Positions 1,654 through 28,920 of a DNA stretch of 32,000 bases are shown in pieces. The first letter of the stretch is position 1, and the number at the start of each line of letters is the position of its first letter. Under the pieces are notes generated by a model, which worked only from the letters and a program-made list of their open reading frames with translations, was not told the DNA's origin and searched no databases. Both the position numbers and the translations under genes were made by a program. The stretch is from an uncultured archaeon (GTDB lineage: Archaea; Iainarchaeota; Iainarchaeia; Iainarchaeales; 0-14-0-20-30-16), in contig CAZQQS010000005.1 in the NCBI GenBank assembly GCA_964595665.1, forward strand, positions 1 to 32,000. The letters run 5' to 3'.

Positions 1654-2166
1654 TTATTGATTTTTAATTAAATCATCTAATTCCTTTCTCCAATTATATG
1701 CGAAAGAATCACAAACATTTGGATTAATTAAGCACAACTCCATTTCTTGCTTATAATTCTCTGATCCATTAACATAAATATCACAATTAGTTCTTATACA
1801 CCAATCTACTAAAGAATAAATATCAAAATTATTTGGATTTTCAGTATCTGGATTTTCAGAACAATCTGATACAAAATATTCAAAATTAAAAGTTTTTGAA
1901 AATATCCCTTTTTTACAATTTATAATAACAAGGTTATTTTCTTTATTTATAACTTTACAATCACCATATTCTTCTTTAATATCAGCAACATTACAAGTTA
2001 CAAAGAAATCCTTATTTATCATAGCATAAGCTTGTTCGGAATCAAAAATCATTTGTCTATAGGAGTCAGAAAAATAAATTTCTTTTTGTGAATTCAAAGT
2101 AAAAAAGAAAATGCTTATTATGAAAACAAACACAATAATTACAACGCTAAAGAAACCTTTATTCAT
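1654..2166 (-). CDS. Pilin-like (class III signal peptide) protein, Cys-rich, putative minor pilin
   Basis: N-terminus MNKGFFSVVIIVFVFIISIFFF: short basic leader, Gly, then a hydrophobic helix. The soluble part has 8 Cys. Start overlaps the upstream stop as ATGA. It is the last gene of the filament locus. Confidence 0.5.
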   Translation of the reverse strand: MNKGFFSVVIIVFVFIISIFFFTLNSQKEIYFSDSYRQMIFDSEQAYAMINKDFFVTCNVADIKEEYGDCKVINKENNLVIINCKKGIFSKTFNFEYFVSDCSENPDTENPNNFDIYSLVDWCIRTNCDIYVNGSENYKQEMELCLINPNVCDSFAYNWRKELDDLIKNQ

Positions 2167-2405
2167 GAAACCACCTTACAATTAGTAATTTTGGTTCCAG
2201 TATATAATTCATAATCAATACAAATATTTCCATTAATATTTTTAGAACTATCTCCAATCATAAATTTATTTGCACTATCAAATATCAAATCATCTTGAAC
2301 ATGATTTACTTTGGGCATTTTTACATCAAAAATAAAAACCAAAGCAATTAAAATAATTACTACAGAGAAAACCAGATCTAACATAAAAATAAAACCTTTA
2401 TTCAT
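2163..2405 (-). CDS. Pilin-like (class III signal peptide) protein, putative minor pilin
   Basis: MNKGFIFMLDLVFSVVIILIALVFIF, with 2 Cys near the C-terminus. The track start at 2411 is TTG; ATG 2405 gives the same MNKGF leader as the neighbouring gene. Confidence 0.5.
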   Translation of the reverse strand: MNKGFIFMLDLVFSVVIILIALVFIFDVKMPKVNHVQDDLIFDSANKFMIGDSSKNINGNICIDYELYTGTKITNCKVVS

Positions 2406-2853
2406 AAACAAACACCTCTATTTGTTTACTTAAATTACAAGAGCCCAATAAACAATAAAGATAATCCTCTTTTGTTATTTTACCATTAGAAGAATGAAAA
2501 ATATTTATCTTTTTGGAAATATGTGTTTTAGAACTTACATTACAAGTTTCAATTGGTTTGATACAAACACTATATTCTAAATCTTCAAATCCAACTAAAG
2601 TATCTGAAATACAAAAACCTAATTTTTTAATTGTCTTATTAGAAGAATCTATTAAATCACAACTATTATCTGAATAAGCTAATCGATTCAAAACAATATT
2701 CATTTCTGCAAACATTTTTGTTTCTTTTTTATATGCATTATATTCTAAAATAGTATTATGCAAATATAACCCCAAAATACCAAATAAAAAAATTACCAAA
2801 GTAATTGTAATTATTAAATCCAATGAAACAAAAAATCCTTTTTTCATAATCAT
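2398..2853 (-). CDS. Pilin-like (class III signal peptide) protein, Cys-rich, putative minor pilin
   Basis: MIMKKGFFVSLDLIITITLVIFLFGILGLY, with 6 Cys. ATGA overlap with the upstream gene. Confidence 0.55.
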   Translation of the reverse strand: MIMKKGFFVSLDLIITITLVIFLFGILGLYLHNTILEYNAYKKETKMFAEMNIVLNRLAYSDNSCDLIDSSNKTIKKLGFCISDTLVGFEDLEYSVCIKPIETCNVSSKTHISKKINIFHSSNGKITKEDYLYCLLGSCNLSKQIEVFVYE

Positions 2854-3185
2854 CCCTTACAATTATTTGAAGTACATATATACGTCTTTTTTAAATTAAT
2901 TATGTAATTGTTATTTTCATCAATAATTAAATTTTTATCCTCAAATCTTACAGTATTTGCAAAATTATAATTAATATTTGCATCAGAAGTATCTACACTT
3001 TTAAATGCAGAATATGCTAAAATATATTCATTAAAATTATTTACATTTGAATTATACAATTTTGAATTTGCATCCAAATCATTCACATAATAAAAAAACA
3101 TAGTTAATGCAAAGATAAATAACATTAATGCCAAAATCATATCAAATGACACTTGACCTCTATTCATTAGTAACACCATCTTCAT
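2850..3185 (-). CDS. Pilin-like (class III signal peptide) protein, putative minor pilin
   Basis: (MKMVLL)MNRGQVSFDMILALMLFIFALTMFF: R-G-Q with Asp at +5 after the predicted G/Q cleavage. 2 Cys in C-terminal YICTSNNCKG. An alternative start at ATG 3167 gives the leader MNRGQ. Confidence 0.55.
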   Translation of the reverse strand: MKMVLLMNRGQVSFDMILALMLFIFALTMFFYYVNDLDANSKLYNSNVNNFNEYILAYSAFKSVDTSDANINYNFANTVRFEDKNLIIDENNNYIINLKKTYICTSNNCKG

Positions 3186-3624
3186 TTACAATTAAATTAA
3201 ATGTTAATTTATTCTCTAAAGTATTTTTATTTTCAAAGTTACAAGGTATAGTTAATTCTCGAGAACAAATAAAATCTTCACAAAAAGATTTTATAGTAGA
3301 ATCATAGTCTTCATTTTGAGAAATTAATTTATAAGAATAACCTATGTTATTATTCTTACAATAAAAATTAGAATCTTTAGGCAATTCAATTTCAACAGTA
3401 AACTTACCAGAATTATAATTTTGTAATAAAGAATATTTAGAATTTATTTCTTCTAAACCTTTATCCAAAGTATTTACATTAATCATATCCAAAACAGAAT
3501 TTCTAGAATAATCTCTTAATGGAATAATTATTACTTCAATTAAAATCAAAATAATTAATAAGATTAATAAGAACTCAATACTTAATTGTCCTTTATTATT
3601 TAAATTAAAGAAATTCCTATCCAT
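3160..3624 (-). CDS. Pilin-like (class III signal peptide) protein, putative minor pilin
   Basis: MDRNFFNLNNKGQLSIEFLLILLIILILIEVII: K-G-Q, Glu at +5, hydrophobic helix, 4 Cys. Overlaps the peptidase gene end by 25 nt. Confidence 0.6.
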   Translation of the reverse strand: MDRNFFNLNNKGQLSIEFLLILLIILILIEVIIIPLRDYSRNSVLDMINVNTLDKGLEEINSKYSLLQNYNSGKFTVEIELPKDSNFYCKNNNIGYSYKLISQNEDYDSTIKSFCEDFICSRELTIPCNFENKNTLENKLTFNLIVNEDGVTNE

Positions 3625-4694
3625 AAAACATCCCCAAAGATTAACATAACTACATATGCAACAAATATACTTGGCACCATAGGCAAAGTTTCCTTTAATT
3701 CAATTTCTTTTTCAGAAAACTCATTTTTTATTTTTAATACATCCTCTTTGTTTAACCCAGAGGCAAGTATATTATTTATAACTATATTATTATATATATT
3801 CTTTCGCTTTTCCAATACTTTTCCTAAAGACTTAATATCTTTCTTTAAAGAATATTTTAAATCACCATAAAAAGAATATTTTAAAGGTTTTAGTTTCTCA
3901 TTTTCTACTATCAAAGGATGGGCCAAAACATCCCCTTCTTTCAAATCATTTATTAATATAGTTTTATTTAAAATTCCTGATTTAGAGATTGAAAAAAACC
4001 AAAAAACAAATCCTAATAAAAAGAATATTATTAATGCTGGCAAAATATTCTTTAAAGTTAAAATAGGATCTAAAAATAAAGATACAATAAACAACCCAAT
4101 AGAAAAAACATATTTTATCTTCTTAGGCAAAATAAAAATTAATATTAAAGCTAAAACATACAAATACAAAGGCAAAGAAAAATAAGAAAATAAAAAATAT
4201 ATCCCTAAAATAGAACATATGCTTACAACAAAAAATAATAATTTTTGTTTTAAATTCTTTTTAATATATTCTTTAACTTTAAAATTTTTAAAATAGGATA
4301 TAAATACTTTGAATGCACCTATAGGAAGAATAAATAAAATACTTAATATAAATAATGAAAAAATAAATGGCAATAAAGAAGTGTTAGACAAAATAGAAAT
4401 ATTTGTAAATGGGATAACTGCGAATAATCCTATAAATAGTTTTGAATCGCCCCCAGCGAATATTCCCAATCGCCAAAACAAATATAGAATTAAATATACT
4501 AAAATAAAGAAACCTAAGAACTTTAATAATGCAAATATGCCTAAAGAAAAATAAAAATAAATTGAATTAGCTATTAAACCATAACCCATTAACCCAAAAG
4601 TTAAATAATTAGAAACTTCTCTATAATTAATATCAGTATAACTAGCGAAAGCTAAAGCAAAAAAAACAATTATATTATTTATTATAAAAAACAT
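3600..4694 (-). CDS. A24-family prepilin/preflagellin peptidase (PibD/FlaK/EppA/TadV-like) with inserted soluble domain
   Basis: Polytopic membrane protein. First catalytic Asp context ASYTDINYREVSNYL, second in IFAGGDSKLFIGL (GxGD-type). A non-hydrophobic segment of about 95 aa (KTILINDLKEGDVLAHPL...EIELKETLP) precedes the last TM helix. It sits between the pilin genes. Confidence 0.8.
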   Translation of the reverse strand: MFFIINNIIVFFALAFASYTDINYREVSNYLTFGLMGYGLIANSIYFYFSLGIFALLKFLGFFILVYLILYLFWRLGIFAGGDSKLFIGLFAVIPFTNISILSNTSLLPFIFSLFILSILFILPIGAFKVFISYFKNFKVKEYIKKNLKQKLLFFVVSICSILGIYFLFSYFSLPLYLYVLALILIFILPKKIKYVFSIGLFIVSLFLDPILTLKNILPALIIFFLLGFVFWFFSISKSGILNKTILINDLKEGDVLAHPLIVENEKLKPLKYSFYGDLKYSLKKDIKSLGKVLEKRKNIYNNIVINNILASGLNKEDVLKIKNEFSEKEIELKETLPMVPSIFVAYVVMLIFGDVLWIGISLI

Positions 4695-4703
4695 AAATAA
4701 TAA

Positions 4704-4892
4704 TTAATCGAATAGTTTTTGAAAGTATTCATTTTTGTACTCTGCAATTCGTTCTTTAGCCGCATTACCCAAATACCTTAAATTAAAGGCAAATAAAGTT
4801 ACTATGGCAACCAAAATAATTGCAAAAACAATAGTCAAAAGGTACTCAATAGAAACTTGAGCACCTTTATCCTTCAAAAACATATTTCTCAC
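4704..4892 (-). CDS. Small type IV pilin (class III signal peptide, Flp/Epd-like), 62 aa
   Basis: MRNMFLKDKGA-QVSIEYLLTIVFAIILVAIVTLFAF: basic leader, small residue, Gln +1, Glu +5, hydrophobic helix, short tail. No Cys. Tandem with two paralogues. Confidence 0.75.
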   Translation of the reverse strand: MRNMFLKDKGAQVSIEYLLTIVFAIILVAIVTLFAFNLRYLGNAAKERIAEYKNEYFQKLFD

Positions 4893-5090
4893 TTATTCAA
4901 TATCAGCCAATCCTTTTGCTTTGAGGGCATTATAATCTAGATTGCCAAGTTGAGTGTTTACATCTGTTTTTGCTTGATTTGCAATGTTTACAACTACCGC
5001 AATTACTATTGCTGCTAATACTATAGCACCACCAATAATTAACAAGTACTCTAATGCACCTTGTGCTTTTTTATCTTTTAAGAAAGTCAT
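4893..5090 (-). CDS. Small type IV pilin (class III signal peptide, Flp/Epd-like), 65 aa; best major-pilin candidate
   Basis: MTFLKDKKA-QGALEYLLIIGGAIVLAAIVIAVVV: Gln +1, Glu +5. It has the strongest RBS of the three (GGAGG at 5098-5102). No Cys. Confidence 0.8.
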   Translation of the reverse strand: MTFLKDKKAQGALEYLLIIGGAIVLAAIVIAVVVNIANQAKTDVNTQLGNLDYNALKAKGLADIE

Positions 5091-5097
5091 AATAATT

Positions 5098-5102
5098 CCT
5101 CC
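5098..5102 (-). promoter_or_regulatory. Shine-Dalgarno (GGAGG) for the 65-aa pilin gene
   Basis: The reverse complement of CCTCC at 5098-5102 is GGAGG, 7 nt upstream of ATG 5090. Confidence 0.55.
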
Positions 5103-5115
5103 AATATATCTCCAG

Positions 5116-5283
5116 TTATACTAATTTAGTTAAATCATCTAATTGTTCTGTTCCTTTATTATAATCTTTAACTGCTTGAGTTTTTACAAAATATCCTATA
5201 ATGGCTACTGCAACAATAACACCACCAATAATTAAAAGGATTTCTATTGATGTCTGCGCCTTGGTATCTTTTGTAAACCTCAT
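5116..5283 (-). CDS. Small type IV pilin (class III signal peptide), 55 aa; absent from the ORF track
   Basis: Hand translation of the minus strand from ATG 5283 to TAA 5118-5116 gives MRFTKDTKAQTSIEILLIIGGVIVAVAIIGYFVKTQAVKDYNKGTEQLDDLTKLV. It has the same K-A-Q...E(+5)-LLIIGG design as the 65-aa neighbour. GTGATGATT lies upstream of the ATG. Confidence 0.7.
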   Translation of the reverse strand: MRFTKDTKAQTSIEILLIIGGVIVAVAIIGYFVKTQAVKDYNKGTEQLDDLTKLV

Positions 5284-5298
5284 AATCATCACATTATA

Positions 5299-6198
5299 TT
5301 AAAGCGCCCCTATTAATAAATATTTCGTTAAAAATTTAGCCATATAAAACACAACATAAGCTATTCCCAAAAATACAGGCAAATAAAAGAATATTTTAGC
5401 ATATTTTTTCTCTCTCATTATTACAACCATTAAAGTTGAAGCTAAAACCTGTATAAACACAAATATTGTTAATACTGTTTCCAACAAGTTCTTTACACTT
5501 AAAGCGTCAGCTACACTTTTAGCATTTGCCAAACCAGTAGTAGCAGAAATACCCATTAAAAACTCAATCAAAGTAACTACTAAACCATAAATTCCCGGAG
5601 CTATAATTGCTCCTGCTGAAACAATAAATAACATTTGCATCATAGTTTTTGCTTTTCTATCTAATTCTAATTTATACAATTTTCGCATATCTTCAGATAA
5701 TTCCTCTAAAATGTCTGCTAATGATGCTCCTGCTTTAATAGTATCATTAATTATAGAAATTGTTTTTCTTACCATTTCAGAATTAACATTTTCTGAAATT
5801 ATATTTAGAGATTCTTCAAAATTATATCCTTGTTCTAATCTTAATAAAACATTTTCTAATTCTATATTTAATGGACCATATTCATAACTAGTTAATTCTC
5901 TTATTGCATATTCGTATGTACCACCTGATTTCAATAAATAAGCAATCTCTCTTAATGCACTCGGAAAATGTTTTTCAATTAATGCAATTCTCTTTTCTTC
6001 CAAAATTAAAGGATAACCAATAAAAAAATCAATAATTACAAATAAACCCACAAACCCCAAAACTAAATTATTTAATAATAAAAAACTGCTGAATAAAACA
6101 ACCAAACCAAAAATCAAAGACAGTATAAACCACAGATTTACATTAATCCTAATATTATTTCTATAAAGTATTGTTTGGTATTTTTCTAAAAACAACAT
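5299..6198 (-). CDS. Type IV filament platform protein, single T2SSF domain (TadC-like)
   Basis: N-terminal TM pair, then a cytoplasmic helical domain (FPSALREIAYLLKSGGTYEYAIREL...IKAGASLADILEELSEDMRK), then C-terminal TM helices. That is one GspF/T2SSF-type repeat. The track start GTG 6207 is part of a GTGAT SD; ATG 6198 is preferred. Confidence 0.75.
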   Translation of the reverse strand: MLFLEKYQTILYRNNIRINVNLWFILSLIFGLVVLFSSFLLLNNLVLGFVGLFVIIDFFIGYPLILEEKRIALIEKHFPSALREIAYLLKSGGTYEYAIRELTSYEYGPLNIELENVLLRLEQGYNFEESLNIISENVNSEMVRKTISIINDTIKAGASLADILEELSEDMRKLYKLELDRKAKTMMQMLFIVSAGAIIAPGIYGLVVTLIEFLMGISATTGLANAKSVADALSVKNLLETVLTIFVFIQVLASTLMVVIMREKKYAKIFFYLPVFLGIAYVVFYMAKFLTKYLLIGAL

Positions 6199-6203
6199 AA
6201 TAA

Positions 6204-7328
6204 TCACATATTTGGTTTAATACTTTTAATATACAAAACTAACATCAAAAAAATCATTGGAAATACTACTAAAAATGCTAATGCAACAACCAAAGGAGTT
6301 AAAGGCAAGGCATTTAAAAAAGAAACGTTTGAACCTAACGGAGCATTTCTTATTCCTGAAAGAATTGCCAACATTACAGGAATAACTATTCCTACAAAAA
6401 TATAAATTACCCCAAAGAAATTCATTTTACCAGTAAACATATCTATATCTGACATTAATTGATAAGAAACATCATCTGCAATAGTACTCATAATTTGAGA
6501 TAAATTTCCACCAGATTTTAACGCTCTTAATAAGTGCCCAATTGCGTTTTTTAATGCAAAAGATTTCGTTCTTAAAGACAAAGCTCTCAAAGAATCTTTT
6601 ATGTCAGAACCTTCTTCAACTTCTAAAACTGTTTTCATTAATTCTTCTGATAAAACCCCATAATCTGCAACTGCAACAGTTTTAATTACTTTATATAAAT
6701 CCATTCCAGAACGCAACAACATAGACATATGTCTTAATGCAAAAGGTAAATTAGCATCAATTAATTTCGCTCTTTTTTTTGCAATTGATGTAGGGTATTT
6801 TAAAATAAAAAATACACTGAAAATAATTAAGAAAATGGATAAAATAATTGGTATCAAATATCCTAAATTAAATGTTATAAATACTGCAAAAAAACTACCT
6901 ATCAACAAAATATTTGTAAAAAATAATATAACTGAAGACATTGCCAAATATTGTGTTGCACTATAATTAATATCTGCAGAATATAATTCCAAAGATAACA
7001 CTTTTGATTCTGGAAACGCCCCCAAAATTTTTCGTGAAATCAAACCAAAGAATCCAGAAAATCTTTCATATATTTTTCCTAATTTTCTAACAAAAGGATT
7101 AAAACTATATTGTAAATCTTTTGGTCTCAATACTTCTATTTTAGATCTCTTACCTTCTGAAATTAAAGATCTTAATTCTTTTAAATTTGTATTGTCTGGA
7201 CCAATCAGTCCTTGTTTTTCATATTTTGTTTTTATTCTATTAACTATAGCATCAACTTTAGACATATCCAATTGTTCTTGAACTTTAGCTCTAGTTTTAT
7301 TTTCTGTATATGTTTGTTGATAAGCCAT
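6204..7328 (-). CDS. Type IV filament platform protein, single T2SSF domain (TadB-like)
   Basis: LPFALRHMSMLLRSGMDLYKVIKTVA...LKSGGNLSQIMSTIADD flanked by TM helices, i.e. one T2SSF repeat. ATG 7328 is preceded by GTGATTTT and is preferred; the alternative ATG 7346 has no SD. Confidence 0.75.
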   Translation of the reverse strand: MAYQQTYTENKTRAKVQEQLDMSKVDAIVNRIKTKYEKQGLIGPDNTNLKELRSLISEGKRSKIEVLRPKDLQYSFNPFVRKLGKIYERFSGFFGLISRKILGAFPESKVLSLELYSADINYSATQYLAMSSVILFFTNILLIGSFFAVFITFNLGYLIPIILSIFLIIFSVFFILKYPTSIAKKRAKLIDANLPFALRHMSMLLRSGMDLYKVIKTVAVADYGVLSEELMKTVLEVEEGSDIKDSLRALSLRTKSFALKNAIGHLLRALKSGGNLSQIMSTIADDVSYQLMSDIDMFTGKMNFFGVIYIFVGIVIPVMLAILSGIRNAPLGSNVSFLNALPLTPLVVALAFLVVFPMIFLMLVLYIKSIKPNM

Positions 7329-7332
7329 AAAA

Positions 7333-9084
7333 TCACTTTTGCTCATAATACTTAGAAATGTATTTCATTAATTCATTTTTATCTCGAATATTTTTATCTA
7401 CTAACAAATCAAAAAAATGTTTTCTATTATCAATTTCATCTTTAATTTGTTGTAAAGATTTTCCGGAATATAACGAAATATTTTTCAAAACTTTTGAAGG
7501 CATGGACGTATCAATTAATTTATCTCTTCGAGGATCCCATTCAAATATTTTTTGTGTTCTAACGTTATCTTCTAAAACTCCCGTAATCTCAGAAATCTCT
7601 ACAATTCTTCTAATTGTTCCTTTTCTTCTATCGTGCAACCTACTTTCAACAATAATCATATCCAAACCAGACAACATCATTTTAGGAACATCCATTGGAG
7701 GATTAGTAATTCTTACAATTGTTTCTTCTGAAGAATTCGCGTGCAAAGTTCCTAAAGAACCATCATGTCCAGTATTCATTGCAGTAAATAAAGATTCTGC
7801 TTCTTTACCTCTTACTTCACCAACTATAATTCTATCGGGTCGCATTCTTAATGCATTCTTAGTTAACATTTCCAAAGAAATTTCCCCAGAACCTTCAATT
7901 CCAGGAGGTCTGGCTTCTAATCTAATCCAATGCTTTAAAGGTAAATTTAATTCTGCAGTATCTTCAATAGAAATAACTCTATCAAATTCAGGTATCAAAG
8001 AACACAAAACATTTAGCAGTGTTGTTTTTCCAGAACCCGTGCCCCCAGAAATAACTATGTTTGCGGGTTTAATTCCCAACCCCTCAACACAAGTCCATAA
8101 AAATGCAGCAACATATGAATCTAATGTCCCATTGTTTATCAAATCAATTATTGTATAAGGATCTTCTCTAAACTTTCTTATTGTTAATGTTGAGCCCAAA
8201 ACACTTGCAGGAGGTAAAGTAGCATTAACTCTTGAACCATCTGGTAAACGAGCATCTAACAATGGCTGCGAGTAATCTATTCTTCGACCAGCATATCTTG
8301 CAATTCTACCAACAATATCTTGAATTTCTTTATCTGTATAAAAAATAATATTTGTAGTCATCATTTCATATTGTCTATGAAATACATATACAGGAGTATT
8401 AGGCCCAATAATCATAATTTCTTCTAATAAATCATCTTTTAATAATAAATCTATTTTGCCAAAACCAACCATTTCTCTAACAACACTTTCAGCATAAAAT
8501 GTTTGCATACTTTCAGGTATTTTTAATTCTGGACTTGATGAAATAATTTCCATAACTTTTTGATAATAAACATTCCATCTTTGTTTTTCATCTCTAATTT
8601 TATATGGTGCTAAAGAAATAATTCTTGTTGCTGCTTCTTTAATTGTATTAATAATTTCTTGTTCACTTGTATTGGCTTTTGGTACAGGAACTTCATAATG
8701 TAAAATAGGGGAATTATTTAATTTACAAATTGTTACTTGATTATATTTGGCAATAACTTGCTTATCTGCATTAGATAATGAATCTACGTTCAAATCTTTT
8801 GTTTCTTTTATTGCACTTTCTATTTTATTAAAATCTTTTTTCTCACCAATTGAAACTTCTTTAGTTAACACAAAATCATCAGAATTATTCATTTCTTTTT
8901 CAGAATTTTTTTGAGTAGATTCCACAACTGTTTTTTTCTCACCTTTTATTAATTGTTCTAATTCAGAAAAATCTTTAGAATTATCTTTTTGATTTTCTTT
9001 AAAGTTTATTTCTGAATATCCTGGTTTTTTAATTTCTTGTTTAGGTTTTTCCTCTTTAAAAAAATCGCCAATTATATCTCCCAT
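7333..9084 (-). CDS. Type IV filament assembly ATPase (VirB11/GspE superfamily; CpaF/TadA- and FlaI/PilB-like)
   Basis: Walker A ISGGTGSGKTTLLN, Walker B/Asp box RPDRIIVGEVRGKEA, His box AMNTGHDGSLGTLHAN. The first ~130 aa are K/E/S/N-rich low complexity. Confidence 0.9.
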   Translation of the reverse strand: MGDIIGDFFKEEKPKQEIKKPGYSEINFKENQKDNSKDFSELEQLIKGEKKTVVESTQKNSEKEMNNSDDFVLTKEVSIGEKKDFNKIESAIKETKDLNVDSLSNADKQVIAKYNQVTICKLNNSPILHYEVPVPKANTSEQEIINTIKEAATRIISLAPYKIRDEKQRWNVYYQKVMEIISSSPELKIPESMQTFYAESVVREMVGFGKIDLLLKDDLLEEIMIIGPNTPVYVFHRQYEMMTTNIIFYTDKEIQDIVGRIARYAGRRIDYSQPLLDARLPDGSRVNATLPPASVLGSTLTIRKFREDPYTIIDLINNGTLDSYVAAFLWTCVEGLGIKPANIVISGGTGSGKTTLLNVLCSLIPEFDRVISIEDTAELNLPLKHWIRLEARPPGIEGSGEISLEMLTKNALRMRPDRIIVGEVRGKEAESLFTAMNTGHDGSLGTLHANSSEETIVRITNPPMDVPKMMLSGLDMIIVESRLHDRRKGTIRRIVEISEITGVLEDNVRTQKIFEWDPRRDKLIDTSMPSKVLKNISLYSGKSLQQIKDEIDNRKHFFDLLVDKNIRDKNELMKYISKYYEQK

Positions 9085-9092
9085 AAAAACCC

Positions 9093-10055
9093 CTAATTTT
9101 TTATATTAAACAAAGCTAACATAGCTTCAATTTGTAACCTATCATTTGAACCTTCAGAAATTCTAAAATTTATTTCTCCTAAAACTTCAATTAATTTTAT
9201 TTTTTGCTTCGAATCTAAAATATCTTCTGAGAAATCAACAACTTCTCTATATGTTTGATTTACTATATCTTCTCCACTCATACCATAATCATAAAGTAAT
9301 TTATACAATAAATCCCTTGCTTCTTTAAATTTTCCATCTTTAGCAAATAAAACCATTTGTTTTACTTCTTCTGGACGCGCTCTTGCACTTATATTAAAAA
9401 CATCTTTTTCAGTAATATTGGAATTTAAAACACTGCATGCTTGCAAAATATTTACTGCTTTTCTCATATCTCCTAAAGAGACATAAAAAATAGAATCCAA
9501 TGCTTTAGTATCCAATTCCAAGGTTTCTTTTTTTGCAATATCTTTTATTCTTTCAACAACATCAATTTTTTCCAAAGGTTTAAACCTAAATACAACACAT
9601 CTTGATTGTATTGGCTCAATAATTTTTGAAGAATAATTACAAGATAAAATAAATCTACAAGTCTTAGTATATTTTTCCATTGTTCTTCGTAATGCTTGTT
9701 GGGCATCTTGAGTTAAAGCATCAGCTTCATCTAAAAAAATAATTTTATATTCTGCTTCTAAAGGCAAAGTTCTTGCAAAATCTTTAATAGTTTTTCTTAC
9801 AACATCTATTCCCCTATCATCAGAAGCATTTAATTCTAAAAAGTTTCTTTCATAGTTCTCACTATATAATGCTCGTGCAATAGCTATTGCAGAAGTTGTT
9901 TTTCCAGTTCCTGCAGAACCAGCAAAAATCATATTGGGTAAGTTTTTATCTTCGGAATATTTTTTTAATCTTTCGATAATCAATTTATGGCCTACAACAT
10001 CATCTAAAGTTTTTGGCCTATATTTTTCAACCCAAGGTAAATTAGTATCACTCAT
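9093..10055 (-). CDS. rfcS: Replication factor C small subunit
   Basis: PWVEKYRPKTLDDVVGH, P-loop FAGSAGTGKTT, FLDEADALT, SRC motif IQSRCVVFRF. The track start GTG 10064 lies in a GTGAG SD; ATG 10055 (MSDTNLPWVEKYRP) is preferred. Confidence 0.92.
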   Translation of the reverse strand: MSDTNLPWVEKYRPKTLDDVVGHKLIIERLKKYSEDKNLPNMIFAGSAGTGKTTSAIAIARALYSENYERNFLELNASDDRGIDVVRKTIKDFARTLPLEAEYKIIFLDEADALTQDAQQALRRTMEKYTKTCRFILSCNYSSKIIEPIQSRCVVFRFKPLEKIDVVERIKDIAKKETLELDTKALDSIFYVSLGDMRKAVNILQACSVLNSNITEKDVFNISARARPEEVKQMVLFAKDGKFKEARDLLYKLLYDYGMSGEDIVNQTYREVVDFSEDILDSKQKIKLIEVLGEINFRISEGSNDRLQIEAMLALFNIKN

Positions 10056-10134
10056 AAAACTCACTATTTTTAATATATGTTATATATATATTTAAAGGTT
10101 TCTTTAATAATATATCTTAATTAAAAGTGAGATT

Positions 10135-10645: not shown

Positions 10646-12229
10646 TTAAATTTTATCCAAAGCTTTTAATCTTTTATCTATTTCTTTTTCAGATTCCAAT
10701 CTTTCAAAATCATAATCTTTCATGTCAACAAATTTCATATACTTTACCAAATTAGGATGCACTCTTAAAACTTGTTTAAACATTTCTTGACAAATTAATC
10801 TATAATCTGGATGCCCTTGCCTAATTGTTCTTAATTCTAATAAATGATATAAAGCTCTTAAATTTAATTTAAAATACCATCTTAAATTATATGCAAATGG
10901 AACACAATATTGCGCTTTTTCAGGATTTGTTTTTACCAAATCCAAATATAATTCATTAGCTTTATCTAATGCGAATTTATACTTAGAATCACAACCTGCC
11001 AAAACTAAATCTTTAGGAATTTCATAACCAAAATAAGTAGTTAATAATTGTCTTTCTTGTGTTAAAATTCTATGTCTTTGTAAATCTCTATATGCCCCAA
11101 AATTTCCTAAAATCTCAAAGGTATAATCTACATTTTCAAATGCTCTTAATGGTTTATGTCTTCTATTTTTTCTCTCACCAACATAATCATAAATGATTTT
11201 ATCTTTTTCATCCTCAGTTAACAACTTTATTTTATCATAACATTCTTGCAAAGATAAATTTGAACTCTTAAACAAAATCTTCGATAAAATTTTATCTTCT
11301 GCTTCTAAATCATAATCAATTAATATTACTCGCTCATTATCTTGTCCAATTAAATTAAAGTTATTTGGATAAGAAACGCTTTTCAAATAATCTTGTAATG
11401 CTAAACCAAATTCGCTCTTACTTCGTTTAATAAATGATGGAAAAACTTTTCCTAATTCATCATACATTTCTTCTCCTAAATTTTTAATCTCATTTAAATC
11501 CGAAACAAATGATTTATTTATTAAATATTCGAATGCTCTACCATTTCCATACATTCCAAAATTTGTTAATGTACTCGCAGGCAATAAACCTCTAATGGTA
11601 TCACAAGTTTTTGCTCTCAAAATTGCTTCAAAAGCCCTCTCAGATAAATTTTCACTATTTGGAATTTTTTCTGCATAATAAGTTCTCATAATTTGCATTA
11701 ACTCACAATAAGTGTCAAACAACAAATTCATTGTCGCAATATATTTTTCTGCAAATTCTGAATTCATAATTTCTTTATCTTTATAATATTTGTATTCGCC
11801 ATTTAATTTTTCATCAAAATAAATATACCTAGAAGATTTTTCCAAAGGACTTATTCCTATTCTAGCATCTTCAAAAAATTTAGTTGCTAAATTAGAAACA
11901 TTTTCTAAAGCTATATGTGCTCCACCTAATTCTGCAACAGAATCATCCCCATATTGAACTAAAACTCTATTATAAAATTCTTCTGCTTTTTTTATTGCTA
12001 TTAATTGTTCATCAATATTTTTTACATCTCCAACAATATTTTTAAAATCATTATCTTTACTATTAAAAAAATCATCTAAAAATAATCTTCTTAAATCTTT
12101 TTCTGATCGACTATATCTTGCAAATAAAGTTCCTTTTACTACTTCTGGCAAATTAATTAATGCGAATGTATTGCTTTCAACATTTGTAAAAAAATGTTTT
12201 AATATTTTCTTTTCATCTTCATTATACAT
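10646..12229 (-). CDS. thyX: FAD-dependent thymidylate synthase ThyX, long (~500 aa) form
   Basis: ThyX RHR signature in YRDLQRHRILTQERQ in the C-terminal half. It is about twice the length of canonical ThyX, as in the known long forms. AGGTGG SD upstream. Adjacent to glyA. Confidence 0.75.
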   Translation of the reverse strand: MYNEDEKKILKHFFTNVESNTFALINLPEVVKGTLFARYSRSEKDLRRLFLDDFFNSKDNDFKNIVGDVKNIDEQLIAIKKAEEFYNRVLVQYGDDSVAELGGAHIALENVSNLATKFFEDARIGISPLEKSSRYIYFDEKLNGEYKYYKDKEIMNSEFAEKYIATMNLLFDTYCELMQIMRTYYAEKIPNSENLSERAFEAILRAKTCDTIRGLLPASTLTNFGMYGNGRAFEYLINKSFVSDLNEIKNLGEEMYDELGKVFPSFIKRSKSEFGLALQDYLKSVSYPNNFNLIGQDNERVILIDYDLEAEDKILSKILFKSSNLSLQECYDKIKLLTEDEKDKIIYDYVGERKNRRHKPLRAFENVDYTFEILGNFGAYRDLQRHRILTQERQLLTTYFGYEIPKDLVLAGCDSKYKFALDKANELYLDLVKTNPEKAQYCVPFAYNLRWYFKLNLRALYHLLELRTIRQGHPDYRLICQEMFKQVLRVHPNLVKYMKFVDMKDYDFERLESEKEIDKRLKALDKI

Positions 12230-14124: not shown

Positions 14125-15126
14125 ATGATTTTTGGATTGTGTGGATATAATGCCTCTGGAAAAGGAGAAATTGCAAATATTTTAAAGGAAAAAGGATATG
14201 TTTATTTTTCATTAAGCGATATTATTAGAGAGGAATGTGAAAAAAGAGATTTAGAAAAAAATAGAGAAAACTTAGTTGCAATTGGAAATGAATTTAGAGA
14301 AAAACGTGGTGCAAATTATTTTGCCGAAATGATCTTAAAAAAAATAAATTTAGAAAGAAATAATAATAAAAATTTTATAGTTGATAGTATAAGAAATCCA
14401 AAAGAAGTTGAAACTTTAAGACAAGATAAAGAATTTGTTTTAATAGGAATAAATGCACCAATAGAATTAAGATTTTCTAGATCTCAATCGCGAGGCAGGA
14501 ATGAAAATGCATTAACTTTAGAAGAATTTATTAAACAAGAAGAAAAAGAGAAATCTTCAAAAGAAAATGCACAACAATTAGATACGGTTTACAAAATGGC
14601 TGATAAATATATTTACAATGATGGTTCTTTAGAAGAATTAAAACAAAGATTAGATTTTGTTTTAAATAATGAAAGGAAAAAAAGACCTAATTGGGACAAA
14701 TATTTTATGAATATTGCAGAAGTAGTAGCTACTAGAGCATCATGTCTAAGACGAAACGTAGGTTGTGTTTTAGTTAAAGACAAACAAATTATAGCAACGG
14801 GGTATAACGGCCCTCCAAAAGGACATCCAACATGTGATGAATTAGGGGGTTGTTTAAGAGACATTACAAAAACACCTAGTGGGCAAAGATTTGAAATTTC
14901 CAGAGCGGTACATGCTGAACAAAATGCAATTTCTCAAGCAGCAGAAAATGGAATTTCAACTAAAGGCGCAACATTATATTGTACAACATATCCTTGTGTT
15001 TTATGTATTAGAACAATTATTAATGCTGGTGTTAAAAAAGTAATTTATAAAGAATTTTATCCTGATGATGGAACAACAGATATCGCTAGAAGGTCTGGAT
15101 TAGAAATGGTTCAATTTAAAGATTAA
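14125..15126 (+). CDS. Fusion protein: N-terminal P-loop nucleotide kinase-like domain (UPF0200/dNMP-kinase-like) + C-terminal dCMP deaminase
   Basis: N-half: P-loop GLCGYNASGKGE, IVDSIRNPKEVETLR, RFSRSQSRGRNE. C-half: NWDKYFMNIA, zinc motifs VHAEQNAI and YPCVLCIRTII (CMP/dCMP deaminase, ComEB-like). Perfect AGGTGAT SD upstream. Confidence 0.85.
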   Translation: MIFGLCGYNASGKGEIANILKEKGYVYFSLSDIIREECEKRDLEKNRENLVAIGNEFREKRGANYFAEMILKKINLERNNNKNFIVDSIRNPKEVETLRQDKEFVLIGINAPIELRFSRSQSRGRNENALTLEEFIKQEEKEKSSKENAQQLDTVYKMADKYIYNDGSLEELKQRLDFVLNNERKKRPNWDKYFMNIAEVVATRASCLRRNVGCVLVKDKQIIATGYNGPPKGHPTCDELGGCLRDITKTPSGQRFEISRAVHAEQNAISQAAENGISTKGATLYCTTYPCVLCIRTIINAGVKKVIYKEFYPDDGTTDIARRSGLEMVQFKD

Positions 15127-16703: not shown

Positions 16704-17033
16704 TTAATCCCCCAATACATTAATATTTACATATTCAAAATTTAAATTTTGTTTTATTTTATTTTCTAAAACTTCTTCATAATTTCCCAAGTCAATTCCA
16801 GGAATAAAAATTATATTAATATCTATATTACTATCATTTATATTACTTTCCAAATTATATTTCCCAGAATAGTTATTTTGCATTAAATAAGTATCTAAAT
16901 TAGATTTTGTTATCCCTAAAGCAACAATTTCAACATTTTCTTTTGGATAACTCGCAAATATTATTATAACTAATACTACGACAACAGCTAAAACAAATAA
17001 AAATTCAAAGCTAGTCTGGCCTTTTTTACTCAT
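16704..17033 (-). CDS. Pilin-like (class III signal peptide) protein, orphan
   Basis: MSKKGQ-TSFEFLFVLAVVVVLVIIIF: K-G-Q, Glu +5, hydrophobic helix. N-rich tail, no Cys. Located 7.6 kb from the filament locus. Confidence 0.55.
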   Translation of the reverse strand: MSKKGQTSFEFLFVLAVVVVLVIIIFASYPKENVEIVALGITKSNLDTYLMQNNYSGKYNLESNINDSNIDINIIFIPGIDLGNYEEVLENKIKQNLNFEYVNINVLGD

Positions 17034-19741: not shown

Positions 19742-21025
19742 TTATTTAATATCAAACAAATTTCTTTGAATTTTTGCTTTTTTTTGTGATATTTGGTTAA
19801 AAATATCATTATCTACGGCTAATTTATCCTCTTTTGAAAAACTAATTATTGGTTTTCCATATTTCCCTCCACCACCTGGAAAATAACTTACTAAGCCATT
19901 TCTAAAAGCTAAAATATATTTTGTTATATCTGGATTAATATTGTTTAAATCGGATTCTTTAAAATCAAATAAAATATTTGTTTCAGTTTCCCCAATTTTT
20001 ATAAAATCCCACCAAATATTTTGAACATTCTTAGATAATAAGTTTTTATTATTTATTGCCAAGCTTATAATTTCTGACAAAGGCAAAATATATTTGTAAT
20101 TAGCCCGATTATAATTCAAAATTTTATTTTGAGAAATTTCTTCAATTCTTTCACAAACTCCTTTTTTAATTTGGCCTTTACAAATACATCTCCACTTTAG
20201 TTTTATTGCTTCTTGCAAAGTATAAAAAGTTAAACAATTTTTACATCTTGTTTTATGATATATTCCTTCTTTTGGATCTAAACCTATATTAAATAATAAT
20301 TCTCGCCCATCTTTTTTTTGCAAAGCTTTTTGTATTTCATAATAATTTGGTTTTTGTAAATTAAAAATATTAAATTCTCTTCCTAACCTGTGAGGCCAAA
20401 AACTATGTGCATCACTATTTGATAAAAAATTAATATCTTTTAATTCTTCAATATTATTTGCCAAATAAGAATCTGCACTTAATCCCAATTCTAAAAAAGA
20501 AATATTTTCAGAATATTTACCATAAGCTTCTTGCAAAGAATTATAATGTGCATAAATTCCAAAATAGGGTGTATACGCGTGCGCCGGACCAAACATTAAA
20601 TTTAATTCTACACACAATTTTGCAATTTGTTCTGCGCTTGCATCATACCACGGCCTACCATTCATAGAACCATCAAATTTTTTACAAAATATTTTGCTTT
20701 TTTCTTTAAAATCAATAATCGATTTCTTATCAGGAAATAAAATTAAATGGTGTGTCCTATCTTTTGCTTGTATTTCAGTAGATAAAATAAAATTATTTCT
20801 TTTTTCCCCAAAAATAGTTTTTACATCATAAAAAAATGTTTCGTCTTCAAATTGCAATTTATTAAATACAGATTCTTGCCAAGTTTTGTGTGTTAAATCC
20901 CCAATAGGACAAATGTTCAAACCTTTATAAAATCCCATTTCAGCTATTTTATCCACACTTAAATTTTTACTTGTGCCTCCAGCATAAGGTCCATGAATAT
21001 GTAAATCAGCATTATATTTTTGCAT
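19742..21025 (-). CDS. Endonuclease Q (EndoQ) family: PHP-domain + zinc-finger DNA lesion endonuclease
   Basis: ADLHIHGPY (PHP), HHLILFP, FGPAHAYTP, FLELGLSADS, LSNSDAHSFWPHRLGREFN, GLDPKEGIYHKTRCKNCLTFYTLQEAIKLKWRCICKGQIKKGVCERIEE (Cys4 finger), C-terminal PGGGGKYG. This block-by-block pattern matches my recollection of Pyrococcus EndoQ. The track GTG 21034 is part of a GTGAT SD; ATG 21025 is preferred. Confidence 0.8.
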   Translation of the reverse strand: MQKYNADLHIHGPYAGGTSKNLSVDKIAEMGFYKGLNICPIGDLTHKTWQESVFNKLQFEDETFFYDVKTIFGEKRNNFILSTEIQAKDRTHHLILFPDKKSIIDFKEKSKIFCKKFDGSMNGRPWYDASAEQIAKLCVELNLMFGPAHAYTPYFGIYAHYNSLQEAYGKYSENISFLELGLSADSYLANNIEELKDINFLSNSDAHSFWPHRLGREFNIFNLQKPNYYEIQKALQKKDGRELLFNIGLDPKEGIYHKTRCKNCLTFYTLQEAIKLKWRCICKGQIKKGVCERIEEISQNKILNYNRANYKYILPLSEIISLAINNKNLLSKNVQNIWWDFIKIGETETNILFDFKESDLNNINPDITKYILAFRNGLVSYFPGGGGKYGKPIISFSKEDKLAVDNDIFNQISQKKAKIQRNLFDIK

Positions 21026-21557
21026 TTGAATCACTATAAATTAACCACAAATAATAAAATAAAATAAAAAATATGAAAAATCCAATTTTAAAAAATATGG
21101 TGTGTAAAACATCTACCAAATTTAAATTTACAAAACCCAATAAAAAAATCATAGCTAACATTCTAATTAAATTAAAATAAATAAATAAAATTAGCAATAC
21201 AAGAAATCCAATAAGTTTATTTTTAAAATTTACTTTTAAATTAGCAAATATTAGTGCTGTGAAAACACATAATTCAAATAAACCAGTACAAACATCAATA
21301 ATATTTATTTCATTCCCAAAAACAAAAATTCCATAATTAATTCCATTAAAAAATAATTCATTAATTATAGTTAAATTGTTTAAAATGTTGTGAGCAATAT
21401 AGGAATAAAAATAAGATAAATTTAAAAAACTAGTAATATAATTTAAAAATAATAAGATTATAACAAATAGTGCTAAAAATAATATTGCGTGATAAAAAAA
21501 ATTCGAATAAATTTTGGAATATAATTTTTTTATTCTTTTAGAAAAATCTTTATTCAT
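21012..21557 (-). CDS. Small exosortase/archaeosortase-family membrane protein
   Basis: Polytopic, 181 aa. Cys in IIDVCTGLFEL, Arg in YFNLIRMLAM and His in VDVLHTIFFKIG occur in the order and spacing of the family's Cys/Arg/His triad. ATGA overlap with the patatin gene. Confidence 0.6.
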   Translation of the reverse strand: MNKDFSKRIKKLYSKIYSNFFYHAILFLALFVIILLFLNYITSFLNLSYFYSYIAHNILNNLTIINELFFNGINYGIFVFGNEINIIDVCTGLFELCVFTALIFANLKVNFKNKLIGFLVLLILFIYFNLIRMLAMIFLLGFVNLNLVDVLHTIFFKIGFFIFFILFYYLWLIYSDSNAKI

Positions 21558-22347: not shown

Positions 22348-22773
22348 TCACTTCAAAATTCCAAAATAATAATTATCAAATTGATGTTTTTCTGCAATAT
22401 TTAATTTCTCCAAAGTATTTAAATGCTCTGTTAAGAAAAATATTTTACTATTATTCCAAGAAAATATCAAAATCCAAAATTTCCCTTTTGATTCATTTCG
22501 TGTTTGTTCCACCCACTCAAAAATTCTTCCTTTGGGATTAATTAATTCAAATAAATTAATAGGTGCTTTTGATTTTTTACATTCAATAACCAAATCCAAA
22601 TATTTTGGGTTTTCTGAAAAAACATCTCCAAAAAATCTTTTGTCTTCACTTTTATTTATTGTAGAAAAAGCCCCACTCATTGGAACTCTTTTCCACTCAT
22701 CTTTTGTTAAATCTTTTAGAAGATTTACTACTTGCCTTTCAAAACTTTTTCCTTTTTGAATGCTATTAACCAT
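22348..22773 (-). CDS. PD-(D/E)xK nuclease, archaeal Holliday-junction resolvase (Hjc)-like
   Basis: KGKSFERQVVNLLKDL...RVPMSGA...GDVFS-x9-LVIECKKSK parallels Hjc (KG..ER....L....V.R..SG...PDIIA...IE.K). Size (141 aa) fits. The ATG overlaps the mutL stop as TAATG. Confidence 0.55.
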   Translation of the reverse strand: MVNSIQKGKSFERQVVNLLKDLTKDEWKRVPMSGAFSTINKSEDKRFFGDVFSENPKYLDLVIECKKSKAPINLFELINPKGRIFEWVEQTRNESKGKFWILIFSWNNSKIFFLTEHLNTLEKLNIAEKHQFDNYYFGILK

Positions 22774-24494: not shown

Positions 24495-24568
24495 AAACAA
24501 TAAAGAGCAAACATATTTAATAGGTTTTTGCAAGTTAAATTTAAATACTTATTCAACTTCTATATAAT

Positions 24569-24736
24569 ATGCCCGCAGCACCACGAAAACCTATACATCA
24601 TCAATTAAACGCAATTCATGCCACATTTCAAAACGGAGCTTCGATTAATGCTGGTAGCCCTAATGATATAAGAAGTGTTGAAGCTCAAAAAAGATTAAAG
24701 AAAATGCAATTGCGAAAATTTGATAAACGTATTTAA
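24569..24736 (+). CDS. Possible 55-aa basic small protein in the mutL-mutS spacer (or a structured RNA)
   Basis: Hand translation: MPAAPRKPIHHQLNAIHATFQNGASINAGSPNDIRSVEAQKRLKKMQLRKFDKRI*. The region is visibly more GC-rich than its surroundings. TTTAAATA at 24540-24547 lies about 22 nt before the ATG, a leaderless-type spacing. No family recognised. Confidence 0.3.
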   Translation: MPAAPRKPIHHQLNAIHATFQNGASINAGSPNDIRSVEAQKRLKKMQLRKFDKRI

Positions 24737-28912: not shown

Positions 28913-28920
28913 TTGCTTTT
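28896..28920. terminator. Perfect 10-bp hairpin spanning both stop codons of convergent genes (bidirectional terminator candidate)
   Basis: AAAAGCAATT (28896-28905) pairs perfectly with AATTGCTTTT (28911-28920), with loop AATTT. A/T runs flank both sides. It covers the rnp4 stop (28910-12) and the stop of the 977-aa gene (28919-21). Confidence 0.45.

Follow-up and report, generated by a model that had tools for sequence, protein, structure and literature searches.

Organization of the pilus operon

The window analysed here is a stretch of 32,000 nucleotides (nt) from an uncultured archaeon (contig CAZQQS010000005.1). It carries an operon that very probably encodes an Epd-like type IV pilus ('system 1', or clade 1 of Makarova et al.) of a DPANN archaeon of the Diapherotrites/Iainarchaeota type. 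According to the ORF listing of the window, twelve consecutive open reading frames (ORFs) on the minus strand span positions 1654-9084. They are arranged in the order ATPase, two platform genes (PlatA and PlatB), three short pilin genes (pil1, pil2 and pil3), peptidase and five genes for larger pilin-like proteins (m1, m2, m3, m4 and m5). Genes that do not overlap are separated by 6, 25, 0 and 9 nt. Taking the longest ORF in each case, the overlaps amount to 14, 4, 25, 26, 4, 14 and 4 nt, and the overlap of 26 nt between m1 and m2 is reduced to 8 nt if m2 begins at an internal ATG (MNRGQ...). A preliminary description of the window had reported a tight block of twelve genes on the same strand with gaps of at most 25 nt, and this was confirmed. 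The features of the pilus system are listed in Table 1.

Table 1. Genes of the pilus system found in the window. A slash marks the predicted cleavage site of the leader; aa, amino acids.
Gene	Position	Strand	Length	Product or leader	Family match or other evidence
ATPase	7333-9084	-	583 aa	pilus assembly ATPase	T2SSE 3e-45; CpaF/TadA-like core
PlatA	6204-7346	-	380 aa	platform protein	one T2SSF stretch, 1.9e-19
PlatB	5299-6207	-	302 aa	platform protein, TadB-resembling	one T2SSF stretch, 2.6e-14
pil1	5116-5292	-	58 aa	short pilin; predicted mature 46 aa after ...KA/QTSIE	PF04021 26.1 bits
pil2	4893-5090	-	65 aa	short pilin; predicted mature 56 aa after ...KA/QGALEY	PF04021 30.7 bits
pil3	4704-4892	-	62 aa	short pilin-like protein; predicted mature 51 aa after ...GA/QVSIEY	weak Pilin_N and Class_IIIsignal
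peptidase	3600-4694	-	364 aa	prepilin (class III signal) peptidase, long, EppA-like	Peptidase_A24 4.6e-12; Arc_PepC 1e-4
m1	3160-3624	-	154 aa	NKG/QLSIEF	PF04021 22.4 bits, just under threshold
m2	2850-3185	-	111 aa	NRG/QVSFD	leader and orthologs; no match in Pfam or NCBIfam
m3	2398-2853	-	151 aa	Cys-rich; KKG/FFVSLD, acidic residue at +6	leader and orthologs
m4	2163-2411	-	82 aa	NKG/FIFMLD	leader and orthologs
m5	1654-2166	-	170 aa	NKG/FFSVV, no acidic residue near the N-terminus	candidate tip subunit
thirteenth gene	16704-17033	-	109 aa	class III-signal protein; MSKKG/QTSFEF	PF04021 22.2 bits; adjoins secD/secF

The assembly ATPase

The CpaF/TadA-like core of the ATPase is flanked by a variable N-terminal stretch of about 130 aa, rich in Lys and Glu, and by a C-terminal region of the archaeal type. 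Its best full-length match in NCBIfam is the FlaI equivalog, with 307 bits at a cut-off of 550. The model of bacterial TadA (TIGR03819) gave 247.5 bits at a cut-off of 373, the BasE model 207 bits (cut-off 1000) and the ComGA model 59 bits (cut-off 300). As the scores lie under the FlaI and TadA cut-offs, the protein is neither FlaI nor a bona fide bacterial TadA. In a sequence search of the PDB, Archaeoglobus fulgidus GspE2 scored highest (287 bits), ahead of Caulobacter CpaF (257 bits) and Sulfolobus acidocaldarius FlaI (218 bits). Over the core, the identity is 37-41% to CpaF and 36-37% to GspE2 and FlaI. When aligned, the His box of the ATPase, AMNTGHDGSLGTLHANS, is near-identical to that of Caulobacter CpaF, AMNTGHDGSMGTLHANS, so the CpaF-like motif spelling pointed out in the preliminary description is borne out. 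The His boxes of GspE2 and FlaI differ (AMSTGH-ASYSTLHAG and AMQTGHS-VMATFHAA). In contrast, the C-terminal region of about 65 residues aligns only with the archaeal proteins GspE2 and FlaI and not with CpaF. The ATPase has thousands of relatives, many of which are called 'FlaI' by JGI. A tblastn search of the ATPase against 72,556 plasmids returned 964 records, and the best 40 of these are all bacterial CpaF-type loci with 38-42% identity.

A neighbor-joining tree with 100 bootstraps was calculated from 399 trimmed columns of 26 sequences (12 DPANN, 4 bacterial CpaF, FlaI, GspE2, 6 Thaumarchaeota/Bathyarchaeota and, as outgroup, 2 PIN-domain ATPases). The DPANN ATPases form a clade with 100% support which is sister to bacterial CpaF, and the joint clade is also supported by 100% of bootstraps. 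FlaI, GspE2 and the thaumarchaeal and bathyarchaeal ATPases lie outside this joint clade (100%), while EpdL of Methanococcus or Thermococcus was not among the sequences. The phylogeny, which had been proposed as a check for nesting within the FlaI clade, thus groups the ATPase with CpaF and apart from FlaI.

Many ATPase orthologs of other Iainarchaeota (loci L014-L022, for example L016, 9518-12847) are 1000-1180 aa long owing to an intein that splits them (PF14528/PF14890, split BLAST matches). The gene for the small subunit of replication factor C (RFC), which neighbours the operon, is apparently interrupted in L002 (670-2967) and L003, where a 765-aa ORF gives split BLAST matches. Both genes are uninterrupted in the window.

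Split platform and prepilin peptidase

The Pfam scan found one T2SSF domain in each of the two platform proteins, as had been claimed for them. PlatA aligns to residues 15-201 of thaumarchaeal platform proteins of about 490 aa and fits the N-terminal part of the FlaJ model. PlatB aligns to the C-terminal half of the same thaumarchaeal proteins and to positions 167-462 of 465 of the FlaJ model. The two proteins therefore correspond to the N- and C-terminal halves of fused platform proteins, as expected for gene fission. Scores against FlaJ models do not exceed 85 bits, with cut-offs of 400-570. PlatA is kept in 17 loci with 34-71% identity, and the split arrangement is likewise kept in 17 loci. 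In hhalign, PlatB matched the first platform gene of the Sulfitobacter Tad locus, which occupies the TadB position, with a probability of 96.9% and an E value of 1.9e-10. A specific assignment of PlatA to TadC was not obtained with hhalign, and both halves best match the TadB-position protein.

The matches to Peptidase_A24 and Arc_PepC substantiate the dedicated peptidase of the preliminary description. By hydropathy, the protein has roughly nine hydrophobic segments, with residues 236-342 forming a soluble insert, and the catalytic residues D21 and D83 (the latter in AGGD) are invariant in 15 orthologs. The score against the FlaK equivalog is low (30 bits, cut-off 330), which indicates the long EppA-like form and not the short FlaK/PibD form. 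A PDB sequence search gave only a weak match to FlaK.

Short pilins

The three short pilins are predicted to consist, when mature, of a transmembrane helix and a short tail. The gathering threshold of PF04021 (Class_IIIsignal, formerly DUF361) is 23.7 bits, and pil1 and pil2 score above it. Alignments gave the leader motifs K[AG]Q[TS]S.E for pil1, K[AG]QGALEYLL.IGGA for pil2 and [KR][AG]QVS.EYLLT for pil3. The position of pil1 and its KAQ.S.E motif are kept across Iainarchaeota. In ten loci, QGALEYLL(I/L)IGGA of pil2 is near-invariant, and pil3 keeps both QVS.EYLLT and its place next to the peptidase gene. Three Flp-sized pilins with K-[GA]-Q...E leaders had been described for this locus; they hold up, both by the class III signal in pil1 and pil2 and by the conservation of the motifs in relatives.

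Compared with the relative L044, residues 1-30 of mature pil2 are identical (30/30) and the tail is identical at 7 of 20 positions. The C-terminal helix of pil3, unlike the tail of pil2, is nearly unchanged (20/21 identical). A pil2-type gene is the one that is duplicated in several Iainarchaeota relatives. Given its invariant helix, its hypervariable tail and these duplications, pil2 is the likeliest candidate for the major, exposed subunit, judged from sequence comparison. The conservation pattern of pil3 suggests a machinery-facing component.

With two bacterial Flp pilins, pil2 shares 32-34% identity over 44-50 aa; this is a weak BLAST result from a tiny database and is suggestive only. 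The Flp model of Pfam (Flp_Fap) gave no match at E<=1 among the pilins, which matched the archaeal Class_IIIsignal instead. Nothing informative was returned by a PDB sequence search with a short pilin. In distant Iainarchaeota (L012 14119-15214, L023 14197-15265 and L018 15150-15497), the pil2-type pilin has a C-terminal extension of 50-120 aa and is often duplicated. The extension is Cys-rich in the two extended copies that were aligned (L009 and L018), and the clade of the window has the minimal, helix-only form. A faint likeness of pil1 to the 'class III signal, archaeosortase D/PIP-CTERM-associated' family was also seen (21 bits, cut-off 65).

Minor pilins and a displaced thirteenth gene

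The five larger pilin-like proteins of the operon are recognized by their leaders, with the motifs [KR]GQ.S.EF (m1), N[KR]GQ.S.D (m2), KGFF.S.DL (m3), KG[FLIV]IF..DL (m4) and KGFFS (m5). An acidic residue is found at +6 in m3 and m4 and is absent in m5. Five conserved minor pilin-like genes are thus present, as described before, but of these only m1 and m2 have the Q(+1) leader, and m3, m4 and m5 have leaders of the G/F type. No family in Pfam or NCBIfam was matched by m2, m3, m4 or m5, the last four genes of the operon.

The m1 gene follows the peptidase gene in about 20 loci, and its relatives carry the JGI label 'UPF0333 family'. Its AlphaFold2 model (mean predicted local distance difference test score, pLDDT, 83) shows an N-terminal helix of 52 residues (16-67) that leads into a beta domain of seven strands and thus has the 'lollipop' shape of pilins. 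Orthologs of m2 have 29-44% identity in L001, L002 and L004, with the leader N[KR]GQ[VI]S.D, and 72% in L044. For m3, orthologs have 37-47% identity and an invariant KGFF[VI]S.DL, with motif equivalents in L006, L008 and L010. The identity of m4 orthologs is 39-47%.

Just six database relatives were found for m5. About the first 50 residues hardly vary among these proteins and the rest is hypervariable, with 39% identity to L044 beyond mature residue 30. The AlphaFold2 model of m5 contains an N-terminal helix and a three-strand sheet, so that the N-terminal two-thirds are pilin-shaped. Residues 100-170 remain unmodelled (pLDDT <50) because of the small number of close relatives. The lack of the conserved acidic residue and the hypervariable C-terminus make m5 the likeliest candidate for the tip subunit. 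Tip pseudopilins of the GspK/PilX type likewise lack the N-terminal acidic residue. We compared the additional C-terminal 50 aa of m5 with a 68-aa ORF that follows m5 in L044 and found that the two are not equal.

Outside the operon, the protein encoded at 16704-17033 is a full-length homolog of the gene directly after m1 in L008 (E 3e-8) and L010 (1.5e-11), and also in L007. On the strength of this homology it is probably a thirteenth, displaced component of the pilus system. The larger pilin-like proteins then number six (five in the operon and one displaced), and the window contains nine class III proteins. All components that the preliminary description named for a complete locus were verified. 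Its completeness has to be qualified in two respects, as the thirteenth gene lies elsewhere and no TadZ-, MinD- or FlaH-like ATPase is present in the window.

Conservation among relatives

Relatives of the locus were taken from a species-representative genome collection (L001 and the following numbers); L044 and L045 are longer contigs that were found via a homolog of m1. By their ATPases, the closest genomes are metagenome-assembled genomes of Ca. Diapherotrites/Iainarchaeota, members of DPANN, with 72-78% identity. Ca. Iainarchaeum andersonii, AR10 and other DPANN follow with 53-66%, and Thaumarchaeota/Bathyarchaeota with 36-40%. ORF calling and BLAST showed that the order of all twelve genes is kept in L001, L004, L044 and L045 and, as far as the contig end, in L002. 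L044 and L045 share the flanks of the window as well. About 15 other Iainarchaeota, among them Ca. Iainarchaeum andersonii (L009) and AR10 (L018), share the core order of ATPase, PlatA, PlatB, pilins, peptidase and m1. In distant members, the rest of the minor pilin genes, identified by the leaders QISLDF, QIFSLDF, LIFTIEALF and FFSEILIL, lie about 2.4 kb away from the main cluster. Compared with L044, housekeeping and motor proteins are 89-96% identical and the peptidase 84%. The exposed portions of the pil2 and m5 proteins have changed faster than the housekeeping genes.

Comparison with known systems

Clade 1 loci have been described as encoding a peptidase of the EppA type with nine transmembrane segments, major pilins of about 70 aa that are usually stand-alone, and five or more minor pilins (Makarova et al. 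2016, PMC4858521). A MinD/FleN ATPase is often part of these loci, in a census that makes no mention of DPANN (PMC4858521). The Epd-like clade, which includes Tad, is further characterized by a platform encoded by two genes with one T2SSF domain each and by exceptionally short pilins (Denise et al. 2019, PMC6668835). The locus of the window has four such traits. Its two single-T2SSF platform genes are adjacent, and a dedicated long A24 peptidase of the nine-segment EppA type, with an extra C-terminal region, is encoded in the locus. The pilins are very short and helix-only, with leaders of the DUF361/PF04021 kind, Q in position +1 and an acidic residue in position +5. The five conserved genes with pilin-type N-termini reach the number of at least five minor pilins. 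Parts of an archaellum are absent, as in the Epd system of Methanococcus maripaludis. Differences to the Epd and clade 1 loci were also observed. The three short pilin genes are located between the platform and peptidase genes, neither a MinD/FleN- or FlaH-like ATPase nor a transglutaminase-like peptidase is encoded in the locus, and three minor pilins have G/F-type leaders and either carry the acidic residue at +6 or lack it. Moreover, the host is an Iainarchaeota-like DPANN archaeon. The comparison with Methanococcus is one of traits.

Bacterial Tad systems resemble the locus in the sister ATPase CpaF with its near-identical His box, in the size of the Flp pilins and in the TadB-like PlatB. 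The order ATPase, platform, platform, pseudopilins is that of the Sulfitobacter Tad locus, and pil2 and pil3 have the E5-Y6 pair of the Flp motif. On the other hand, the pilins match PF04021, the peptidase is of the archaeal type with Arc_PepC, the TadA score is below its cut-off, and the ATPase keeps a C-terminal region that is alignable with GspE2 and FlaI. No secretin (RcpA/CpaC), TadZ/CpaE, TadD or CpaB was found in the window, whereas the Sulfitobacter Tad locus has these envelope parts. The ATPases A. fulgidus GspE2 (PDB 2OAP) and Sulfolobus FlaI (PDB 4II7) are full-length homologs including the C-terminal helical region, but both have a different His box and lie across a split with 100% support in the tree.

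Among DPANN, Ca. Mancarchaeum acidiphilum Mia14 has a clade 1-type locus (MIA14_0170-0177; Golyshina et al. 2017, PMC5498576). It reportedly combines a type IV pilus locus of the type known from Methanococci, Methanobacteria and Thermococci with the lack of an archaellum (PMC5498576). Mia14 belongs to the Micrarchaeota and its locus is shorter, with 8 genes; here the comparison is by description. Subsystem 4A, which has two platform genes in some DPANN, is marked by a clade 4-type ATPase, by 4A pilins and by a PilY-like adhesin encoded after the platform. The ATPase of the window stands apart from the thaumarchaeal and bathyarchaeal ATPases that were sampled, and no large adhesin gene is present in the locus.

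Assignment to the Epd-like class and alternative explanations

The Tad/Epd-like identification made in the preliminary description is supported and fits the published definition of the clade (PMC6668835, PMC4858521). The pilus is a clean example of a known archaeal class and not a new machine or mechanism. Its mixed Tad and archaeal character had been singled out before. This mixture is present, but it is the known signature of the Epd-like class and therefore expected, and this class is already known from DPANN (PMC5498576; 10.64898/2026.04.22.720090). 'System 1' has been reported from methanogens, Thermococcales and DPANN (Sivabalasarma and Albers, 2026 preprint, 10.64898/2026.04.22.720090), so the novelty of the system type is modest.

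Several observations weigh against this assignment. No MinD/FleN (arCOG00589), TadZ or FlaH/KaiC-like ATPase was found in the scanned ORFs of the window or in the 10 kb around the locus in L044, although an accessory ATPase of the MinD/FleN or FlaH-like kind is a frequent, non-universal trait of clade 1 (PMC4858521). The short major pilins of clade 1 are typically stand-alone, but here they are found inside the operon. A Foldseek search with the m1 model gave no significant match in the PDB, and the neighbor-joining tree contains just 26 sequences. The Epd-like placement relies on shared traits and on the position of the ATPase as sister to CpaF. The pilus is known here from its genes, and the roles as major pilin and tip are assigned tentatively.

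If the Epd-like pilus works as its parts suggest, the prepilins would insert into the membrane, and cleavage by the peptidase after [GA] would remove their short basic leaders, so that Q or F becomes residue +1. The ATPase, as a hexamer, would dock on a heterodimer of PlatA and PlatB and lift mature pilins from the bilayer into a helical filament. This filament would be held by the hydrophobic N-terminal helices of the pilins, and the larger pilin-like proteins may prime assembly and cap the filament. By analogy to Methanococcus Epd and bacterial Tad, the filament most likely serves adhesion to surfaces or other cells and would not be a motility organelle.

An adhesive function had also been proposed in the preliminary description. 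The reading as an archaellum fails. The best full-length match to the FlaI model and the 'FlaI' names given to many relatives by JGI might suggest an archaellum or a motility apparatus derived from it. The FlaI score is far below the cut-off (307 versus 550 bits), as are the FlaJ scores, the platform is split, and the ATPase clusters with CpaF apart from FlaI. The window contains no archaellins and no FlaF/G/H/X/CDE genes. Consistent with the gene absences reported earlier, a scan of ORFs with 80 aa or more in the window found no archaellin and no FlaF, FlaG, FlaH or FlaCDE domain. As far as the window reaches, the archaellum was therefore rejected, and its probability is negligible. A more serious alternative is that the same machinery builds a dynamic, retractile pilus, in which the single CpaF-like ATPase drives both extension and retraction, to capture host or partner cells on contact or to twitch. 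CpaF has been reported to be bifunctional (PMC11300603, PMC12019362), as in Caulobacter, and the sister ATPase of the window has a near-identical His box. The operon lacks a second ATPase, and the hypervariable tip candidate m5 would suit partner recognition. Retraction is not readable from sequence, though, and is not known for any system 1 pilus of archaea, so we consider this unlikely. Capture of a host in particular meets the difficulty that Diapherotrites are described as comparatively metabolically rich and possibly free-living (PMC8561730), so that an obligate host is not established. The episymbiosis premise of the preliminary description is likewise unsupported for this lineage, whose closest relatives are these Diapherotrites/Iainarchaeota, and host attachment becomes speculation.

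We regard it as very unlikely that the locus builds a short pseudopilus, or an assembly resembling a bindosome, for the display or secretion of class III-signal proteins. Archaeal type IV filament machineries have been proposed to be functionalized with substrate-binding proteins (10.64898/2026.04.22.720090), the window has its nine class III proteins, and the ATPase shows a sub-threshold match to BasE. This match is far under the cut-off of 1000 bits, Pfam and NCBIfam scans found no substrate-binding domain among the class III proteins, and helix-only pilins of 46-56 aa are a hallmark of Epd and Tad filaments (PMC6668835). We rate a competence-type pilus for DNA uptake as highly improbable. 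DNA uptake is a role of type IV filaments in many bacteria, DNA exchange mediated by type IV pili has been speculated for DPANN (PMC5498576), and the operon lies amid genes of DNA replication and nucleotide metabolism. These neighbours are ordinary housekeeping genes, the ComGA score of 59 bits contrasts with a cut-off of 300, and window scans gave no ComEC/ComEA-like channel or DNA-binding pilin domain. A further reading concerns ancestry. Tad has been proposed to stem from transfer of an Epd-like system to Bacteria (Denise et al. 2019, PMC6668835). It is possible, but rather unlikely, that the Iainarchaeota system and not Methanococcus Epd is the closest living archaeal relative of the Tad motor, or else that a motor was transferred back from bacteria to DPANN. 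A His box near-identical to that of CpaF, a gene order like that of Tad loci and the Flp-like E5-Y6 motif of the pilins speak for it. If it were the closest relative, the Iainarchaeota system would best represent the donor in the transfer from archaea to bacteria that made Tad pili.

As an Epd-like pilus, the system is a compact member of an archaeal class thought to be ancestral to bacterial Tad pili, with nearly all parts in one operon. It belongs to an uncultured DPANN lineage in which surface appendages are the main attachment candidates. For structural modelling and for Epd/Tad phylogenies it provides a parts list that comprises one ATPase, the two pieces of the platform, one peptidase, three pilins of the helix-only kind and six minor pilins.

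Genomic neighbourhood and other observations

The upstream neighbour of the operon is the RFC small-subunit gene (9093-10064), which lies on the same strand at a distance of 8 nt from the ATPase start. Nearly every Iainarchaeota locus has RFC on the upstream side of the pilus genes, directly next to them or 4-5 kb away. The adjacency suggests read-through transcription or a promoter within RFC. Genes for RFC subunits are also found near PilT-like ATPases with PIN and KH domains in Methanobrevibacter (L039, 9290-11146, and L040, 9305-11146). These had come up as distant matches of the ATPase; they were rejected as pilus loci, as the ATPase genes lie amid housekeeping genes, and served solely as the outgroup of the tree. 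Convergent genes for an M48 peptidase and LemA form the downstream boundary of the operon.

The window has a G+C content of about 25%, and scans of it for tRNA genes and Rfam families gave no match. Genes for bacterial-type MutL and MutS are present in this archaeon at 22773-27159 (minus strand). ThyX is of double length (527 aa) with two Thy1 stretches (10646-12229, minus strand), and a dCMP deaminase is fused to a P-loop kinase-like domain (14125-15126, plus strand). A 977-aa protein (28919-31852, minus strand) without a family match in Pfam or NCBIfam is predicted to be mostly coiled-coil, with a Pro/Glu/Lys-rich stretch and two C-terminal hydrophobic segments. Finally, a membrane protein of 181 aa (21012-21557, minus strand) fits the exosortase/archaeosortase signature TIGR04178 with 37.3 bits at a cut-off of 23.

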